This document shows, piece after piece, positions 1,426-47,797 of a stretch of 64,000 nt of DNA. The DNA lies in contig JBKDXR010000058.1 in assembly GCA_046306055.1 (NCBI GenBank), forward strand, positions 110,792-174,791, in the 5' to 3' direction. A model generated the notes under the pieces. The model was given only the letters and a program-made list of their open reading frames with translations, ran no database searches and was not told the DNA's origin. The first letter of the stretch is position 1; each line of letters opens with the position of its first letter. Made by a program: the position numbers and the translations under genes. The stretch comes from Flavobacteriales bacterium. GTDB taxonomy: Bacteria; Bacteroidota; Bacteroidia; Flavobacteriales_F; PHOS-HE28.

Positions 1426-3310
1426 GTGCGGTACGAAGGTCCGGCGGTGACGCGGGGCGTGCAATAGAACCTTTGTTAGGGGTGTGGAACGGCACGATGC
1501 AGCCGAACCGTGTGCCTTGGTCCACTGTGAAGTGGCAGGTACCGCCCAAGGCCTGCAAGCGCTGGCGCATGTTGCGCAGGCCGTTGCCACCGTCCACGTT
1601 GTCGGGGAACCCCACGCCATTGTCGTGCACCACCATGCTGAGGATGCCTTGGTCGCCGTCGGTGCGGTAGGTGATGGTGAGGTCCACTGCGGAGGCCTGG
1701 GCGTGCTTCACCACGTTGTGGAGCGCTTCCTTCAGCACCAGGAAGAGGTTGCGCCGCTGTTCCACGCTGAGCTGCACGATCGGCCATGTGGGGTCAGTGG
1801 TCACGAGCAAGGCCAGGTCGTTCTCTGCGCAATAGGTGCGGGCATAGCTGGTGGTGTAGACCACCCAATCCTCCAAGGTGGACTGGTCGTGGCCCATGGT
1901 CCAGATGATCTGGCGCATGCTGCCGATGAGCTCGCCTGCGCTGGCGGCCATGGACTGTAGCTGCTGCCGCTTTGCAGGGTCCTTCTCCACGCGTAGGGCC
2001 ATTTCGCTGCGGAGCTTCAATCCACTGAGGCCCGCACCCAGGTCGTCGTGCATGTCGCTGGCAATGCGCATGCGCTCGTGCAGGATGGCCTGTTCGCGTT
2101 CAAATTCCGCCTTGCGCCGCCGCCGGTCGATGATGGTCCACATGACCGAAGCACCGATCACCAGCACGCCCAGCAGTACGGCCAGCAGCAACTTGCGTTG
2201 GTTGGAAGCCTTCACCTCGGCAAGCACGCGCGCGTTCTCCGCCTGCTCGCGCTCGGCCACGTAGGCCAGGCTGTCCTGCAGGGCCTGCTGCCGATAACTG
2301 AAGGCGATCTGCGCACGCAACAGCTCTTCGCGCCCCTTCTCGTTGTGCAGGCTGTCCATCATGGTGGCGTACAGCTCGTGCATGGCCAGGGCCTTCCGGA
2401 GGTCGCCCTCCTGCTTGTAGAGGGTGTGCAGGCTCCCCGCAGCGTCGAACACTTCGGCGGCCATGGAGCTGGCTTGTGCCAATGCCAGGGATCGTTCGTT
2501 GAGCGCAATGGCTTCACGGCGCCGACCCTGCGCGGCGCGCAAGTGACCGATGCTGCGCAGGAGGATGGCCTGTTGCCGTTCGTCCATGATGCGTTCAGCG
2601 ATGCGCAGTGCGGATCCCAGCCGTTCCTCGGCCATCGCCAGCCGGCCCGCCGCACGGTCCAGGTTGCCCAGGTTGCCAAGCACCAGCGCTAGGCTGCGCT
2701 CATCGCCCGAGCGTTGGTGCAGCCGCTCCGCTTCCAGGAAGCGCGCGTAGGCGGCAGCCGTATCGCGCAGCTGCAACAAGGCGGTACCGCTGTTGAGCGC
2801 CGCGTTGCCCATGCAGGCCGTATCGCCCGCCAATGTACATGCCACCATGCTGCTGTCGCAGTGGCGCAGGGCCTTCGTGTGGTCGCCCAGATCGGTATGG
2901 ATGGCGCCGATGTTGGCGTGCGAGATGCCGATCCGCCGTTGATCGCCCATGCGTTTGAGCACCGCGATACTGCGTTGGTAGCGGTCCAACGCACCCGGCC
3001 GATCGCCCCGCAACTGCAGCGAGGCGCCCTGCGCGTTCCACCCGATGGCCTCGTGCTTCAGGTCCTGCTGGCGGCGCGCCAGTTCCACCAGCTGCTCGGC
3101 GAGCTGGTAGGCCGTGTCGGGCGCGTGGAACATGTAGTGGTCAAAGGCCAGGTAGTCCAAGGCCTGCATACGCTCCACTGCAGGCTGTGCCCCATCGCGC
3201 ACCACCGCCCACAACGAATCGGCGTTGACCTGCGCATGCACACACCCTACGGCGGTCGTGGTGAATAGGGCGGACAGCAATGCAGTGCGGAACATGCGCG
3301 GTGTGGTCAT
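1391..3310 (-). CDS. Sensor histidine kinase with periplasmic/N-terminal TPR repeats (HisKA_3 + HATPase_c)
   Basis: 639 aa. Signal peptide, multiple TPR-like repeats, one TM helix (LLLAVLLGVLVIGASVMW), then RIASDMHDDLGAGLSGL (His box, NarX/DegS type) and an HATPase region (HDNGVGF...GNGLRNMRQRL). Cognate to the adjacent LuxR regulator. Confidence 0.8.
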   Translation of the reverse strand: MTTPRMFRTALLSALFTTTAVGCVHAQVNADSLWAVVRDGAQPAVERMQALDYLAFDHYMFHAPDTAYQLAEQLVELARRQQDLKHEAIGWNAQGASLQLRGDRPGALDRYQRSIAVLKRMGDQRRIGISHANIGAIHTDLGDHTKALRHCDSSMVACTLAGDTACMGNAALNSGTALLQLRDTAAAYARFLEAERLHQRSGDERSLALVLGNLGNLDRAAGRLAMAEERLGSALRIAERIMDERQQAILLRSIGHLRAAQGRRREAIALNERSLALAQASSMAAEVFDAAGSLHTLYKQEGDLRKALAMHELYATMMDSLHNEKGREELLRAQIAFSYRQQALQDSLAYVAEREQAENARVLAEVKASNQRKLLLAVLLGVLVIGASVMWTIIDRRRRKAEFEREQAILHERMRIASDMHDDLGAGLSGLKLRSEMALRVEKDPAKRQQLQSMAASAGELIGSMRQIIWTMGHDQSTLEDWVVYTTSYARTYCAENDLALLVTTDPTWPIVQLSVEQRRNLFLVLKEALHNVVKHAQASAVDLTITYRTDGDQGILSMVVHDNGVGFPDNVDGGNGLRNMRQRLQALGGTCHFTVDQGTRFGCIVPFHTPNKGSIARPASPPDLRTAHAEHPHQPGRG

Positions 3311-3366
3311 GACGCATTGGCATCATGGGATCGCCAAACTACGGCGTGCCGCCTTCCCGGCCAAGC

Positions 3367-4998
3367 TCACCGCTTCTCCAGCTCCAGCACGATGGCCAGT
3401 GCGTTGCCGCCGCTGCTGCTCGCCCCGATGGTGGTGCCGTCCGTGAAGTGCACGTCGGTGGATAGCTCATCACCGAGCACCTCGCTGAGCTTGGCCGCGA
3501 GGCCCACGGCCTTGCTGGCAAGCAGGCGTTCATTCAGCTTCGGATAGTCGAAGGGCTGGTTGGTGACCAGCACGGCCATTACATCACGTTGTCCTTCATC
3601 ATCGGCCATCAGGCTGTGGTCGCTGGGGAAGATGCGGGTGCCGGTGATGCCACAGTAGGGCGAATGTTTCGGGGTGTAGGGGAAGAGCACATAGGTGCTT
3701 CCGTCGGCCTCCTGCCCGAACACATACGTATAGCACTCGGCGTTGTTGGTCACCTCGATCTTGAACTTCGCGCCTTTGGCGACCGTGGTGGTGCTCCGGA
3801 ACACATTGCCTCCGGTATTCCTCAAGGGAATGTTCTTCTTGGTGGCGTTGTCCACGAAGCCGAAGCGGATATCGAATCGGGTGGGTTTCACGTCCACGCC
3901 TTCACCCTGCGGATAAACGGCATAGGCCTCTTTGGCGAAATGGTCGAATACGGGGTAGGGTACCCAGGCCATGCCGTTCTTCCCCCATTCGGGACCCCAA
4001 CTGTTCATGATGAGGAAGCCGCCGGAATCGCCGAACTTGAAGTCATCATAGCCCACCACGCACATGGCATGTCCGCCGAAGCCCCGTTGGGCGTAGTCCT
4101 GTTCGTTGGGCAGCCAGGCATCGCGGCCTTCCATGGCCTGCATGAAGGAGCCGCCCACCATCATGCCAATGACGATGGGAGAGCCCTGGGCCAGGTGCTG
4201 TTTCATGGCCACCATATCGGTGCGCTGCTCGTTCGCCCCCAGCGTGAGGCGTTGGAATCCCTTGATGCGGTAGGGCAGGGCCTGCTTGCGTTCATCGGCA
4301 TTGGGCAGTTTGTCGCAGCGCTGGTCGGTGTAGGCGAATTGGCTGAAGGGGAGGGCGCCGCCTTTCAGCATCTGCTCCATGGCGCGATAGATGTAGGATC
4401 CCTGGCAGTCGCTGCCATCGATCTTGATCTGGTTGTACATGAAGGCCGGGCTGAAGGCGATCTTCTGCTTATGAATTACACCTTCTTGGAAATCAGCGAC
4501 TGAAGAGTCTCGTCCATCTATTGATTCGAAACTGCCTTCTTCAATAATGTCCATCGCCTTGTTGTAAACGATGGTGCGCGCTGCGTAAGCACTGGCCCAC
4601 GCCACGCAGCTTCCCTGCTGGCCCTGGTTGAGACGGGGCGGACAATACTGCTCCAATGTGATCCGCTCGGGCAGCGGGTTCTTCACGTTGTCCGCCAAGG
4701 GTTCGTATACCTCGGCCTGGTCGTAGAGCGCCGGGTCGAAGTTGGCGCCGGTGCTGAAGTTGGCCAGTTGGGAAAGCATATCCCCACCTCCGCTGTTGCG
4801 ACCCACGAAGAACCACCATAGCCCGCCAAGGACCAGCACCAGGAGCAGGAGCTTGGGCTTCTTGATGAGCAGGCCGATGATCATGGGCAACAGCCGTCCC
4901 AAGCCCCCACCCATGCTGCCACCTCCAGCGGAGCGACGTGGTGTGGGCGCACTACGCCGGCTTCCACCGGGCTCGTCGGGTACCATACGAATGGCCAT
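3367..4998 (-). CDS. Membrane-anchored papain-family (C1) cysteine peptidase with C-terminal beta-rich domain (DUF4384-like)
   Basis: N-terminal cytoplasmic Gly/Arg-rich tail plus a TM segment (LLPMIIGLLIKKPKLLLLVLVLGGLWWFFV). Catalytic motifs QGSCVAWASAY (Cys), GGHAMCVVGYDD (His), NSWGPEWGKNG (Asn-Ser-Trp). Confidence 0.7.
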   Translation of the reverse strand: MAIRMVPDEPGGSRRSAPTPRRSAGGGSMGGGLGRLLPMIIGLLIKKPKLLLLVLVLGGLWWFFVGRNSGGGDMLSQLANFSTGANFDPALYDQAEVYEPLADNVKNPLPERITLEQYCPPRLNQGQQGSCVAWASAYAARTIVYNKAMDIIEEGSFESIDGRDSSVADFQEGVIHKQKIAFSPAFMYNQIKIDGSDCQGSYIYRAMEQMLKGGALPFSQFAYTDQRCDKLPNADERKQALPYRIKGFQRLTLGANEQRTDMVAMKQHLAQGSPIVIGMMVGGSFMQAMEGRDAWLPNEQDYAQRGFGGHAMCVVGYDDFKFGDSGGFLIMNSWGPEWGKNGMAWVPYPVFDHFAKEAYAVYPQGEGVDVKPTRFDIRFGFVDNATKKNIPLRNTGGNVFRSTTTVAKGAKFKIEVTNNAECYTYVFGQEADGSTYVLFPYTPKHSPYCGITGTRIFPSDHSLMADDEGQRDVMAVLVTNQPFDYPKLNERLLASKAVGLAAKLSEVLGDELSTDVHFTDGTTIGASSSGGNALAIVLELEKR

Positions 4999-43432: not shown

Positions 43433-43569
43433 TCGGCAGATGGGGCGGGCCGTGCTGGGCTCAGCGGCCTTCAGTTCCTCGAAGGACGAGAATCGGCGAA
43501 GGGTGTTCATCGGTCCAGCGGTGCTCCGTGCCTCCAAGATACGGCAACGGCTGGCGGTCGAGTTAAACG

Positions 43570-43746
43570 TCATTCCCGGCACGCCGCCCGCAGCTCCTCG
43601 AGCGTGCGGTAGTTGAGCGCGGGGATGTAGCCCGCTACGCCCGCGCGCATGCCCTCGGCCACCATGGCCACATTGCTCACCAGGAACATCGGTGCCATGA
43701 TCAAGGGGTGCTCCAGGTGGAGCATATCGGTGAGGCGGGTGCGCAT
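43570..43746 (-). pseudogene. Relic copy of the 5' end (first ~55 codons) of the NMO/FabK-like gene found at 1..602
   Basis: Reads MRTRLTDMLHLEHPLIMAPMFLVSNVAMVAEGMRAGVAGYIPALNYRTLEELRAACRE then TGA. About 88-90% nt identity to ~430-602, then unrelated sequence on both sides. Confidence 0.6.
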
Positions 43747-43817
43747 GGTGTAAAGGTCGTATACGAGCAGCCGATCCGCGATCGATCATGCTCGTGGACG
43801 GCGCATGACATGTAGGT

Positions 43818-44219
43818 TCAAGGGCACGGGATCAGCCGCAGTTCACGGCCACCGCCGAACTCCTCCGTAAGCCGGATGCACGCGCCCAGCTCTCCCTGGC
43901 GCAGATGCCGTGCCCTCGTTACGCAGTGTTCCGGTGGGTCCGGGTTCATGCGAAGGCCGCTGATGAGACCGGTGGGCTTTGCACAGGGGATGGGTCCGCA
44001 GAGCAGCACTGAGTCCATCCGGAGCGTCCGGGTGCTGTCTGGGGCGAGCCCACCGAGGCTCATGCCGGCAAAGGTGAAGGCATCGATGCGGTGGCCTGTA
44101 TTATTGGTGAAGCGCAGGTCCACCTGGGCGAGGGCATGCATGGCCGGGAAGATCAGGCCCAGCATCAACAGCGTGCGCCGTGCACCGCTCGCTGCACGGT
44201 CAGGGATGGCGTTGATCAT
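43818..44219 (-). CDS. Hypothetical small secreted protein
   Basis: Signal peptide LLMLGLIFPAMHALAQ. The start is chosen at an internal Met. Confidence 0.35.
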   Translation of the reverse strand: MINAIPDRAASGARRTLLMLGLIFPAMHALAQVDLRFTNNTGHRIDAFTFAGMSLGGLAPDSTRTLRMDSVLLCGPIPCAKPTGLISGLRMNPDPPEHCVTRARHLRQGELGACIRLTEEFGGGRELRLIPCP

Positions 44220-45003
44220 CGGGTGTCGGACTTGGGTGTTGAAGACCCCGGGCCCAATGGTGGACGACAAGGTACCAGCGTTGCGTGGTATCGTTCACTG
44301 GTCCGTTATTCGTGCGCACAACGCCCAGGGCAGCGGTCTTCCGGCGGTTGCGTAGCACGCGCCGCACGTCCACGGTGAGCTCGGTCTCCGGCGCGGCGAA
44401 CCGCTCGCCCACGCTGTAGCTGCCCAGCCGCACGGTGTCGCCGGGGGCCAGGGTGTGCTCGCTGTCCTTCAGCGCGGGGGAGGGCCGCAGAACCTTCACG
44501 TTGGCCTTGCCGGCCTGCCGCGTGGCGTTCACCAGGAAGACCTCGTTGGTGAAGAGCTTCTGGCAGTGGGCCAGCACGGGTTCATCCGGCCCCGTGTGGA
44601 AGCGCAGCGTGGTGAGGTCCTCGTGGCTCTGCTGCCAGAAGCCGGTCTGGTTGCCCTGCTCATCGAAGGTGGTGGTGCTGCGGTACCATTGGATGCCGGC
44701 ATCGGGCGCATCGCTTGCTTCGGCCTTGCTCACCGCGCCATTGGGGTGGTAGCTGAAGTTGACACTGGCATGCCCACCGATGCGCCGGGTGCCGTAGCGG
44801 AAGATCTCCTTGCCGCTGCGGTCGTACGCCGTGGTGAGTCCGAAGCGCTCGTCGGTGTCCATCCATTCCTTGGTGCTCACGCCGCCGTTCCTGAATTGGT
44901 GCAACACCACCAGCCCGCTATCCGTGCGCAGTTCCATGCGACCGATCTGGGCGGAAAGCGTGAGCGTGCTCAGTGCGACGAAAAGGGTGGTGGAGAGGCG
45001 CAT
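44200..45003 (-). CDS. Hypothetical secreted protein, paralog A of a tandem pair
   Basis: Signal peptide [19 protein letters not shown]. Shares [13 protein letters not shown] / DTVRLGSY and overall ~40% identity with 45371..46237. Confidence 0.55.
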
Positions 45004-45076
45004 GGCCGGGCAAAGCCAAAGATCAGGCCAAGGCTTCGCGTCTTCGCGGTCCCTGCGGTCCGGCAGGTCGAACCAG

Positions 45077-45196
45077 ATGGCTAAAAAGATCCAGAAGCTG
45101 CTCGTCGCCAACCGTGGCGAGATCGCCCTGCGCGTGATGCGCTCCGCCCGCGGGATGGGCATCAGCACCATGTCGGTCTTTTCCGAAGCCGACCGC
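45077..45196 (+). pseudogene. Relic copy of the first ~40 codons of accC (biotin carboxylase)
   Basis: [40 protein letters not shown] versus the genuine acc[42 protein letters not shown]; the sequence diverges afterwards. About 25 nt of upstream leader is also copied. Confidence 0.6.
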
Positions 45197-45370
45197 CACG
45201 CCGACCAGTTGTCGGCATGGAACACCGCTGGCAGGTCCGTGGTGCTTTTCACGCGCTGCAGCGCCCGCCAACGCCCGTATGCGGCGGCGATGCCGGTGGC
45301 CAGGGCGATCAGGTGGAAGGTGGCGAAAAGGTAACGGACCATCATTGGCCTCAAGGGAAGGTATTGGGGC

Positions 45371-46237
45371 TCAGCCCCAGATCATCCACCACTTTGATCC
45401 GCCCCGGGGCAACGGTGTGATGCCGTCCTCGCGCTTGAACTGGTCGTTGCGGCCTTTCTTCCAGCCTGTGATCCGGATCACGTATCGAACGTGCTCTGGA
45501 CCCACCATTTCCGCGTCCGTTCGGGTCTCCGGCACGCGCCTCTTTTTCGCGTCAGGGCCGACCTGCTCGATGAAGAAGGTGAGTTGGCGGTCGGGTGGCA
45601 CGAACGCCTCGTAGTACGCATAGGTCCCCAAACGCACCGTGTCGCTCGGGTCAAGGAAATGGGTGCCACGCGGCAGGGTGGGATGCTCGTACACCGGGCT
45701 CACCACCGCTCGACAGGCCTGGTCCGTTCCGTTCACCAGGAACACCTCGCTCACGTACAGCTTCTGGCATTCCGCGATCGGCCGCTCCGGATGCCACACC
45801 TCGCCAGGGCCTGGGCGCAAGGCGCTGTCGGGGTGTGATAGGAGGTCAGCCTCCTTGTTCCCACGCTCGACGAAGCGGTTCCGGTTCCCCTCCGGGTCGA
45901 AGCCGGTGTAGCTGCGGTACCACGGGCCACTTCCTTCGGGGGCCGTGCTGTACTCCACGGCGGCCACGGAGCCGCTGGCGTGGTAGGAGAAACGTACGCC
46001 GAGATGGCCGGGGATGCGGCGGGTCCGGTGCGCCACCAGCACGGTCCCGTCGCGTTTGAACGCCCAACTCCGGTCCCAGGCCTTGTCCTTGTCCGTCCAG
46101 TCCAGTGTGCTCAACTCCCCCGTGGAGAAGAAATACAGCCGGACCTGTCCGCTGTCGGTCTGGAGCGTGCAGGTCCGTACCTGCGCAAGGAGGAGCGGGG
46201 CAACGGCAACGAGCAGGAGGCTGATCAGCGCGCGCAT
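45371..46237 (-). CDS. Hypothetical secreted protein, paralog B of a tandem pair
   Basis: Signal peptide MRALISLLLVAVAPLLLAQ. Homologous to 44200..45003. Divergent to accC, 63 nt between the two start codons. Confidence 0.55.
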   Translation of the reverse strand: MRALISLLLVAVAPLLLAQVRTCTLQTDSGQVRLYFFSTGELSTLDWTDKDKAWDRSWAFKRDGTVLVAHRTRRIPGHLGVRFSYHASGSVAAVEYSTAPEGSGPWYRSYTGFDPEGNRNRFVERGNKEADLLSHPDSALRPGPGEVWHPERPIAECQKLYVSEVFLVNGTDQACRAVVSPVYEHPTLPRGTHFLDPSDTVRLGTYAYYEAFVPPDRQLTFFIEQVGPDAKKRRVPETRTDAEMVGPEHVRYVIRITGWKKGRNDQFKREDGITPLPRGGSKWWMIWG

Positions 46238-46300
46238 CAGCGTGAATAGTGTCAAAGATCAGGCCAAGCCTTCGCATCTTCGCACTCCCTGAACAGGACC

Positions 46301-47797
46301 ATGGCCAACAAGAAGATCCAGAAACTACTCGTCGCCAACCGTGGCGAGATCGCCCTGCGCGTGATGCGCTCCGCCCGCGAGATGGGCATCAGCACCGTGG
46401 CGGTCTATTCCGAAGCCGACCGCAACGCACCCTTCGTACGCTTCGCCGATGAGGCCGTGTGCATCGGGCCTGCCGCCAGCAAGGAGAGCTACCTGGTGAT
46501 CGACAAGATCGTCAAGGTCTGCACCGATCTGAAGGTGGATGCCGTGCATCCCGGTTACGGCTTCCTCAGCGAGAACGGCGACTTCTGCCGTGCGCTGGAG
46601 AAGGCGGGCGTCACCTTCGTTGGTCCTTCGCCCCACGCCATGAAGGTGATGGGCGACAAGCTGGCCGCCAAGGAGGCCGTGAAAGGCCATGGCGTTCCGC
46701 TGGTGCCCGGTACCGAGGGTGCCGTGAGCAGTTTGGAAGAGGCCATGGCCGTGGCCAGGACCATCACCTTCCCGATCCTGATCAAGGCCGCGGCCGGTGG
46801 TGGTGGCAAGGGCATGCGCATCGTGGAGCGCGAGAGCGAACTGAAGGAAGGCCTGGAGCGCGCCATCAGCGAAGCACAGAACGCGTTCGGCGATGGCAGT
46901 GTGTTCATCGAGAAGTACGTGACCGGTCCGCGACACATTGAGGTGCAGATCATGGCCGACACGCACGGCAACACCTGCTACCTGTTCGAGCGGGAGTGCA
47001 GCGTGCAGCGCCGTCACCAGAAAGTGGTGGAGGAGGCCCCGAGCGCCGTGCTCACCCCCGAGCTGCGCAAGCGAATGGGCGAGGCTGCCGTGGCCGTGGC
47101 CCGCAGCGTCGACTACACCGGCGCCGGCACCGTGGAGTTCCTGCTCGACTCCAGCATGGAGTTCTACTTCATGGAGATGAACACCCGCCTGCAGGTGGAG
47201 CACCCGGTCACCGAGATGATCACCGGGCTGGACCTGGTGAAGCTGCAGATCCGCATGGCCGAAGGGGAGAAGCTGCCCTTCACGCAGGATGACCTGAAGA
47301 TCAACGGCCACGCCATCGAGGTACGCGTGTATGCCGAGGACCCCGCCAACAACTTCCTGCCGGACATCGGCAGGCTCACAACCTACCGGCCCCCGCAAGG
47401 CCCGGGCGTGCGTGTGGACGATGGTTTCGAGGAGGGCATGGACATCCCCATCCACTACGACCCCATGATCGCCAAGCTGATCACCCATGGGGCCACCCGC
47501 GAAGAGGCCATCAACCGCATGGAGCGCGCCATCGACGATTACGCCATCAGCGGCGTGGAGACCACCTTGGGTTTCTGCCGCTTCACCATGGGGCACGAGG
47601 CGTTCCGTAGTGGCACGTACGACACCCATTTCGTGCGCGACCACTACCGGCCCGAGCTCCTCGATGGACAGGACCCCGAGGAAATGGCCGCTGCCGCGGC
47701 CGTGGCCGCAGGCCTGTTCGAGGGCCGGAACCAGCGACCTACGCTTACCGGGACCGGTGCCAGCGCAGTAAGTGCCTGGAAACTAAAGCGGCGCTGA
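46301..47797 (+). CDS. accC: Acetyl-CoA carboxylase biotin carboxylase subunit
   Basis: 498 aa. ATP-grasp biotin-carboxylase motifs throughout ([36 protein letters not shown]). Confidence 0.95.
   Translation: MANKKIQKLLVANRGEIALRVMRSAREMGISTVAVYSEADRNAPFVRFADEAVCIGPAASKESYLVIDKIVKVCTDLKVDAVHPGYGFLSENGDFCRALEKAGVTFVGPSPHAMKVMGDKLAAKEAVKGHGVPLVPGTEGAVSSLEEAMAVARTITFPILIKAAAGGGGKGMRIVERESELKEGLERAISEAQNAFGDGSVFIEKYVTGPRHIEVQIMADTHGNTCYLFERECSVQRRHQKVVEEAPSAVLTPELRKRMGEAAVAVARSVDYTGAGTVEFLLDSSMEFYFMEMNTRLQVEHPVTEMITGLDLVKLQIRMAEGEKLPFTQDDLKINGHAIEVRVYAEDPANNFLPDIGRLTTYRPPQGPGVRVDDGFEEGMDIPIHYDPMIAKLITHGATREEAINRMERAIDDYAISGVETTLGFCRFTMGHEAFRSGTYDTHFVRDHYRPELLDGQDPEEMAAAAAVAAGLFEGRNQRPTLTGTGASAVSAWKLKRR

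Follow-up and report, generated by a model that had tools for sequence, protein, structure and literature searches.

A probable foreign version of an exported-protein gene beside the resident copy at the accC locus of a Flavobacteriales bacterium

Introduction

Among the described systems that come closest to the locus presented here are the additive displacement arrays, which are known from the effector-immunity arrays of the type VI secretion system in Vibrio cholerae and from Rhs C-terminal displacement (PMC5361080). Homology-facilitated illegitimate recombination, described in naturally transformable bacteria (PMC3240628; references of PMC5361080), has been proposed as the mechanism by which such arrays form (PMC5361080; see also PMC3240628). 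In the present work we describe two related genes, A and B, that lie beside the biotin carboxylase gene accC and encode putative exported proteins. They are found in a 64,000-nt stretch of DNA from a Flavobacteriales bacterium (GenBank assembly GCA_046306055.1, contig JBKDXR010000058.1, positions 110,792 to 174,791 of the forward strand), which we call the window. We consider it probable that A and B did not arise by duplication in place and that B is a foreign version of the same gene standing beside the resident one. The foreign origin of B is well supported by the comparisons given below, and the mechanism that we favour for its arrival, a single crossover that left the donor block permuted, is moderately supported.

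The locus has several properties in common with displacement arrays. An incoming homologous module would have been anchored on a conserved neighbour and added, not swapped; the old module would have been shifted together with a stump of the conserved gene; the copies are heterogeneous in a way that duplication cannot explain; and the donors are related lineages that co-occur with the recipient. The differences lie in the anchor, which here is the housekeeping gene accC with its promoter, and in the module, which here is one exported protein without recognisable toxin or immunity features, present in two copies only. The locus also resembles the products of homology-facilitated illegitimate recombination, in which one side is anchored by a conserved stretch and the other is joined with little or no homology, but the leader sequences of accC fit a permuted block better than a linear one. 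With Campbell-type integration it shares an insert flanked by direct repeats, two joints within the same interval and a gene order that is permuted relative to the donor locus. Unlike in that system, we see no replicon and no integrase or attachment-site machinery; the place of the 'element' is taken by part of the orthologous locus on the chromosome of another lineage; the homology is that of a promoter inherited from a common ancestor; and the circular intermediate is one that we infer. A classical tandem duplication would likewise produce homologous genes head to tail, each with a copy of the promoter, but an in-genome origin is contradicted by the junction, the phylogeny and the divergence times.

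Layout of the locus

Relatives are cited below as L-numbers for genome loci and as P-numbers for proteins of the family. The main features are the following.

44200-45003, minus strand: gene A, 267 aa, assigned as the resident ortholog; its product is an exported protein of two beta domains that is uncharacterised
45017..45047: promoter motif copy 1, whose half beside A is of resident type (..AAGG..)
45048..45076, plus strand: relic leader, 29 nt, of non-resident type; the insert begins here
45077-45201, plus strand: accC 5' relic, start codon and 41 codons, decaying
45202..45204: CGA, where the accC relic is joined illegitimately to the DUF2214 fragment
45205..45354, minus strand: stump of a DUF2214 membrane-protein gene, its first 50 codons
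45371-46237, minus strand: gene B, 288 aa, assigned as a xenologous copy of the same family from an L053/L056/L137-like lineage
46253..46283: promoter motif copy 2, whose half beside B is of donor type (..AAGC.., preceded by CAGCGTGAATAGTGT); the insert ends here
46284..46300, plus strand: resident accC leader (ACTCCCTGAACAGGACC), 17 nt
46301-47797, plus strand: genuine accC, biotin carboxylase, 498 aa
45048..46283: inserted block, 1236 nt, equal to the repeat period, as delimited by comparison with the empty sites of L138 and L025

A and B lie on one strand, head to tail, with a repeat spacing of 1227-1236 nt. Their products are 38% identical across 247 residues (protein alignment, E=4e-47) and have the motifs CQKL[FY]..EVFLVN and DTVRLG.Y in common. 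A preliminary description of this DNA had reported two homologous secreted proteins in this arrangement (44200..45003 and 45371..46237), each behind a copy of a divergent promoter and of the accC 5' end, of which the one at 46301 would be genuine and the one at 45077 a truncated relic. This anatomy proved to be right. The gene at 46301-47797 gives a full match to TIGR00514 (645 bits against a cut-off of 626.5) with all three Pfam domains present, whereas the open reading frame (ORF) of the relic (45077-45334, 85 aa) matches Biotin_carb_N at positions 2-44 only, and the relic has to be regarded as non-functional as an accC member. Its ORF is not conserved, as an in-frame TGA stop is found in the relic of the sister species L022. 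L011 and L012 carry strain-specific substitutions in the relic.

The preliminary description had also seen the same stretch of ~170 nt upstream of each secreted-protein gene. The similarity itself was recovered, with 93% identity over 119 nt (45083-45201 against 46310-46428) and 90% identity over 39 nt (45017-45055 against 46253-46291). But the 29-nt relic leader and the 17-nt leader of the genuine accC do not align with each other, and therefore the repeat consists of two blocks and not of one continuous stretch. The promoter motif has a 31-nt core, CAAAGATCAGGCCAAGSCTTCGCRTCTTCGC, that occurs exactly twice in the window (0 expected in shuffles), and the consensus of both copies (45017-45047 and 46253-46283) is CAAAGATCAGGCCAAG[G/C]CTTCGC[G/A]TCTTCGC.

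A comparison across species puts this similarity into perspective. With few exceptions, the first 119 nt of accC are ~85-95% identical among the species compared; lower values are confined to the most distant ones (e.g. L054). This conservation extends even to species whose family proteins are only 40-50% identical, and the 31-nt promoter motif is likewise conserved in most species compared. Because the accC 5' end is so highly conserved between species, the 93% match of the relic carries little information about its age. A conserved flank beside diverged genes, from which diversifying selection had been suggested as one possibility, does not point to such selection either, as the flank is conserved across species and the family evolves fast everywhere. 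The dN/dS ratio (nonsynonymous over synonymous divergence) between the two genes, which had been suggested as a check, says nothing here because the synonymous divergence (dS) of A against B is 1.29 and thus saturated.

Phylogenetic placement of A and B

A relative of A and B is carried by 34 species-level genome loci, in most of which the family gene is divergent from accC and a DUF4294 gene lies beyond accC. Some 30 related Flavobacteriales species have a single copy beside accC; two copies are found only in the window species and in its sister L022, and in both species A and B are intact. Single copies of A type occur in L023, L025 and L024 (78-80% aa identity to A) and in L026, L028, L017, L018 and L043 (63-70%), and single copies of B type in L053 (86% aa identity to B) and L056 (88%). 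In the DUF4294 tree, the window and L022 belong to a clade with L023, L025, L026, L038 and L054 that has 100% support, and L053 and L056 to another with L039, L040, L041 and L029 (96-97% support). The tree of the A/B family itself places the two genes of the window in different groups: A of the window and A of L022 are nested with the single-copy genes of L024, L023 and L025 (93% bootstrap), and B of the window and B of L022 form a long-branch clade with L053 and L056 (100% support). As far as sequence comparison can show it, A is the resident ortholog and B the version of a donor lineage represented by L053, L056 and L137.

The divergence of B does not follow that of its neighbour. For accC, dS from the window is 0.21 to L022, 0.48-0.50 to L023 and L025, and 0.53-0.54 to L053 and L056. 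For B, dS between the window and L056 is 0.205 overall and 0.043 for residues 91-225. Over nt 271-867 of B (597 nt), only 4 sites differ from L137, which corresponds to 99.3% identity, and 28 sites from the sister L022. L137 has a promoter, a leader and an accC 5' end of L053 type, and the short contigs of P0002 and P0003 have an upstream region of donor type. The B gene is furthermore a mosaic, in which nt 1-135 and 676-765 are specific to the window and L022 and have 77-84% identity to L053 and L056. Residues 45-90 and 226-255 of B are variable segments. Taken at face value, these patterns show B to be a xenolog that has kept exchanging DNA with the donor lineage since its insertion; the most recent exchange may have run in either direction.

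Within the donor clade, L053 and L056 differ by a dS of 0.094 in B and 0.386 in accC. B dS is low against accC dS in this pair, and therefore B alleles would move or sweep within the donor clade.

The stump of a neighbouring gene

Further evidence comes from the sequence between the relic and B. The homology to accC stops at ..ACGC (45201) and that to DUF2214 starts at CCAGTTG (45205); the DUF2214 stump ends after ..FHADNW and is joined via CGA to codon 41 of accC. On the protein level the stump is 96% identical to L053:6884-7033 and 94% identical to L056. In both of these loci a complete DUF2214 gene of 150 aa, which matches PF09980 at 4.4e-32, follows the B-type copy. We identify the fragment as a DUF2214 stump because it is 96% identical to the gene that follows B in L053, and on this identity the window holds the stump of a gene that is a neighbour of B in another lineage. 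In a metagenome scan with the C-terminus of DUF2214, most matches were to distant members of the family, and L056 was the only relevant one. When 45197-45375 was compared with the region downstream of A (43500-44260), to which it should correspond if the tandem were a duplication, no significant nucleotide or protein similarity was found.

The joint of the window, which reads ..ACGC, CGA and CCAGTTG, has a possible overlap of 2-4 nt with the donor sequence GCCGTACCAG, and the joint of L022 lies within a CGAnnAGG-like similarity; for both joints the exact donor is unsampled.

The probable insert and its permuted order

The single-copy close relatives L025, L138, L023 and L024 represent the empty site. 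L138, which carries the window's own type of A N-terminal allele, and L025 read ...AAGGCTTCGCATCTTCGC followed directly by AGTCCCTGAACAGGAAC-ATG, with ...GGGGCAAAGCCAAAGATCAGGCCAAGGCTTCGCATCTTCGC on the A-start side before AGTCCCTGAACAGGAAC and the ATG of accC. Their 177-nt stretch of motif, leader and accC 5' end has two counterparts in the window, at 45017-45202 and at 46253-46428. The inserted block parts the resident motif from the resident leader. Copies of the 31-nt motif, in direct orientation, stand at both of its ends, and both switches between resident and donor type fall within the same ~14-nt stretch CTTCGC[A/G]TCTTCGC of the motif copies. The AAGG half-motif beside A is of the same type as in the single-copy loci L025, L043 and L138. 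The half on the B side, together with the bases up to the ATG of B (CAGCGTGAATAGTGTCAAAGATCAGGCCAAGC), is of L053/L137 type.

The leaders show the complementary pattern. The leader of the genuine accC has its best match in L025 (15/17 positions), and the leader of L138 is the same as that of L025; both of these loci are single-copy and A-type. The relic leaders of the window and L022 have their best match in L041, a species of the donor clade, with a score that is reached by at most 1 in 1000 shuffles, and the relic leader of L022 also matches L039 and L053 well. Read from one end to the other, the block consists of the accC leader, the accC 5' end, the junction, the DUF2214 5' end, B and the B-side half of the motif, which is the order of the donor locus circularly permuted.

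This leads to the following proposal for the origin of the tandem. A block of the foreign locus would have been inserted into the resident divergent promoter. The simplest route would be a single reciprocal crossover of Campbell type within the motif, with a circularised donor fragment as the partner, and an equivalent route would be recombination with donor DNA that already carried a transient tandem duplication. B would arrive with its own half of the promoter, A would keep its own half and the genuine accC would keep the resident leader. The accC stump and the DUF2214 stump would then be left to decay.

Alternative explanations

Several observations weigh against the permuted crossover as we propose it. 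The coding part of the relic has 8/119 differences to the resident accC (~4-5 to the inferred within-species ancestor, judged from the differing substitutions in L011 and L012) and ~17/119 to L053. Because the relic is nearer to the resident accC, a donor-derived relic would require gene conversion or an unsampled donor. In L022 the coding part of the relic does not discriminate between the two sources. The leaders are short (17-29 nt), and that of the window relic partly matches L043, a recipient-side species. No right-hand breakpoint could be called inside accC from sliding-window identity and informative sites (L053 against L023 and L025); accC is 85-93% identical to everything compared and gives a mixed signal. 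The joints of the two species also differ, with accC codon ~51 joined to DUF2214 codon ~7 in L022 and codon 41 joined to codon 50 in the window. Finally, 44832-45200, which comprises the first ~57 codons of A, the promoter and the relic, is only 64-74% identical between the window and L022, and this divergence calls for at least one further event, so that the present junction may be secondary.

The same observations have to be set against other possible histories. A linear donor fragment with DUF2214', B, the promoter and accC might have entered by homology-facilitated illegitimate recombination, with its right end homologous in the motif or in accC and its left end joined illegitimately within the resident accC 5' end of a sister chromosome. 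The relic would then be a piece of resident accC, in agreement with its coding part being nearest to that gene, and the non-resident relic leaders would be later replacements, which the rampant later recombination at the locus makes conceivable. There is a possible GC/GCCG microhomology at the junction, and arrays of a comparable kind have been explained by this mechanism in a published proposal (PMC5361080); that B and the DUF2214 stump are of foreign origin is common to this history and to ours. It predicts, however, a donor leader at the genuine accC or a resident leader at the relic, and the opposite is found in both the window and L022. Two independent leader replacements would be required, or two sister chromosomes and a replacement, and we judge a linear fragment to be unlikely. 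Very unlikely is the in-genome tandem duplication put forward in the preliminary description, in which the gene, its promoter and the accC 5' end were copied together, the genes diverged to 38% identity under diversifying selection, and the promoter and accC pieces were kept alike by gene conversion or selection. The head-to-tail layout with its period of 1227-1236 nt, the 93% identity of the relic to the resident accC and the weak constraint on A and B (a dN/dS ratio, or omega, of 0.4-0.5 between the window and L022) would agree with it. But what comes after the relic bears no relation to the DNA downstream of A; it is the 5' end of a gene that elsewhere lies next to B. B does not coalesce with A, and over 597 nt it has 99.3% identity to a genome from another clade. 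The relic leader, moreover, differs from the resident leader.

The long, deep branch of B in the family tree could also suggest ancient paralogy, with an ancestor that had both A and B, most descendants having lost B, and L053 and L056 having lost A. The divergence of B should in this case be at least that of the species (accC dS 0.53), but values of 0.04-0.26 are observed, in addition to the 4/597 nt that separate B from L137. Some 30 independent losses would be needed, and the full DUF2214 gene cannot descend from a truncated stump, so that we regard such a history as extremely improbable. The chance that the locus is a chimeric join of two strains or species that share accC is in our view negligible. 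Donor and recipient lineages do co-occur in lake metagenomes and share near-identical stretches, but the same junctions recur across independent assemblers and samples, with polymorphism inside the relic. The order of B, relic and A was found in 16 fetched contigs from separate ENA, JGI and NCBI assemblies, including two NCBI metagenome-assembled genomes (MAGs), and the contigs with the tandem layout show strain-level polymorphism within the relic. The layout is seen in at least 20 independent assemblies, and B is listed in 81 blocks of the collection index. The layout is therefore to be taken as genuine.

One candidate for a later change of the relic was tried and discarded. This was a 'refreshing' of the relic by an A-type donor through allelic replacement; L138, a single-copy genome with the A N-terminal allele of the window, has a leader of L025 type and not that of the relic.

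Later exchanges at the locus

The history of the locus does not seem to have ended with the arrival of B. The gene downstream of A enters here:

43818..44219, minus strand: hypothetical gene of 133 aa downstream of A, part of the resident flank

This gene also follows the A-type copies in L022, L023, L024 and L028 (tblastn synteny) and had no match in a Pfam and NCBIfam profile search. Together with the 3' two-thirds of A it makes up a stretch (43832-44732) that is 100% identical to L022 on the nucleotide level, in a surrounding of genes with ~93-97% identity, as would be left by a very recent recombination of the window species with L022. The first ~57 codons of A-type genes (44832-45003) come in two allele forms, MRLSTTLF... 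and MRTLPLL..., that are shared across species, as seen in P0012, P0014, P0027, P0038, P0063 and others. As the two N-terminal alleles are independent of the rest of the gene, this part would be a separately recombining module.

By all appearances the locus has been reworked repeatedly, and at least one of the present junctions is secondary. We can speculate about a second import in the window lineage, anchored in B and with its illegitimate end in the old relic. Such an import would explain why the window is nearly identical to L137 from within B as far as the stop codon of B, where the contig of L137 ends.

Another 5'-end stump was noticed in the neighbourhood of A, a 58-aa ORF (43570-43746, minus strand) that resembles the N-terminus of nitronate monooxygenase (weak Pfam NMO match, positions 2-55). 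L017 has the same 58-aa piece (1811-1987) and, ~1 kb further on, a full NMO gene (2797-3750) with a near-identical start.

The A/B protein family and its expression

The proteins A and B have signal-peptide-like N-termini that end in A-Q, and this end is nearly invariant across the family. We take it to fit an exported protein, as would be expected of a signal peptidase I substrate in Bacteroidota. A search of Pfam and NCBIfam profiles found no family for A or B, with no significant profile or fold match. Clustering at 90% identity divides the family into ~200 clusters, and at 50% identity it has ~320 representatives; all of its named matches come from uncultured Flavobacteriales or Bacteroidota genomes (MAGs), several of them from lakes. 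An AlphaFold (AF2) model of A built from 104 sequences has a mean pLDDT (predicted local distance difference test) of 86.5. The predicted fold begins with a signal helix. About nine beta hairpin strands then form an N-terminal meander (residues 22-126), which a disordered linker connects to a beta sandwich at the C-terminus (residues 150-250). Between the window and L022, omega is 0.4-0.5 for A and B and 0.06 for accC, and with both genes intact in the two species the family can be described, by its substitution pattern, as fast-evolving yet maintained.

Gene A can be misread as part of a longer frame. A 384-aa ORF (44200-45354, minus strand) starts in the DUF2214 stump, crosses the accC relic in antisense and continues into A, and the gene callers in most metagenomes annotate this region as a protein of 380/381 aa (P0010). 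The long form is an artefact of high G+C, because the conserved signal peptide begins at an internal Met (45003).

A scan for sigma-70 promoters and terminators gave nothing above chance, but such a scan does not cover Bacteroidota promoters, and the predicted fold of the spacer between B and the DUF2214 stump was likewise not above chance. The transcripts of A and B may start at the TGATCTTTGG box, ~15-25 nt upstream of the ATG. In the relic the start codon is preserved, as is a promoter half of accC type, and the ORF of the relic points at the 3' end of B. This promoter half could drive antisense transcription into B.

The divergent promoter as a possible recurrent insertion point

The same divergent promoter holds a small two-gene cassette in several species of both clades (L056:3090-3560, L140:1100-1600 and L139:250-480; also L023, L024, L026, L028, L033 and L049). 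In L056 it consists of an 86-aa ParE-family toxin and an upstream antitoxin-like ORF. In L056, L139 and L140, where its position was checked base by base, the cassette follows directly after CAAAGATC[A/G]GGCCA. This raises the possibility that the accC/A divergent promoter serves repeatedly as a site of insertion, for other cargo as well.

A more far-reaching interpretation, which we offer tentatively and think less likely than not, would see the slot beside accC as a dedicated diversity hot spot of this Flavobacteriales clade. The conserved 31-nt promoter motif and the accC 5' end would be a portable anchor for recombination, by means of which species would exchange, stack and re-shuffle both the alleles of a hypervariable exported protein and ParE-type toxin-antitoxin cassettes. 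The exported protein could then be a target of phages or of interbacterial antagonism, and the tandem of A and B a selected 'two-allele' genotype and not a by-product.

Implications

The locus illustrates that a foreign allele stacked beside the resident one can take on the appearance of a diverged tandem duplicate. If the two genes were treated as paralogs, inferences such as the dating of a duplication, dN/dS or neofunctionalisation would go wrong. The extent of gene flow here is seen in the 99.3% identity over 597 nt between lineages whose accC genes have a dS of 0.53. The findings also draw attention to a family of uncharacterised exported proteins, which comprises hundreds of clusters and lacks a Pfam model, as a hot spot of recombination and diversity. 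The 5' end of a housekeeping gene, together with its promoter, can serve as the homology by which neighbouring variable genes are imported across species.

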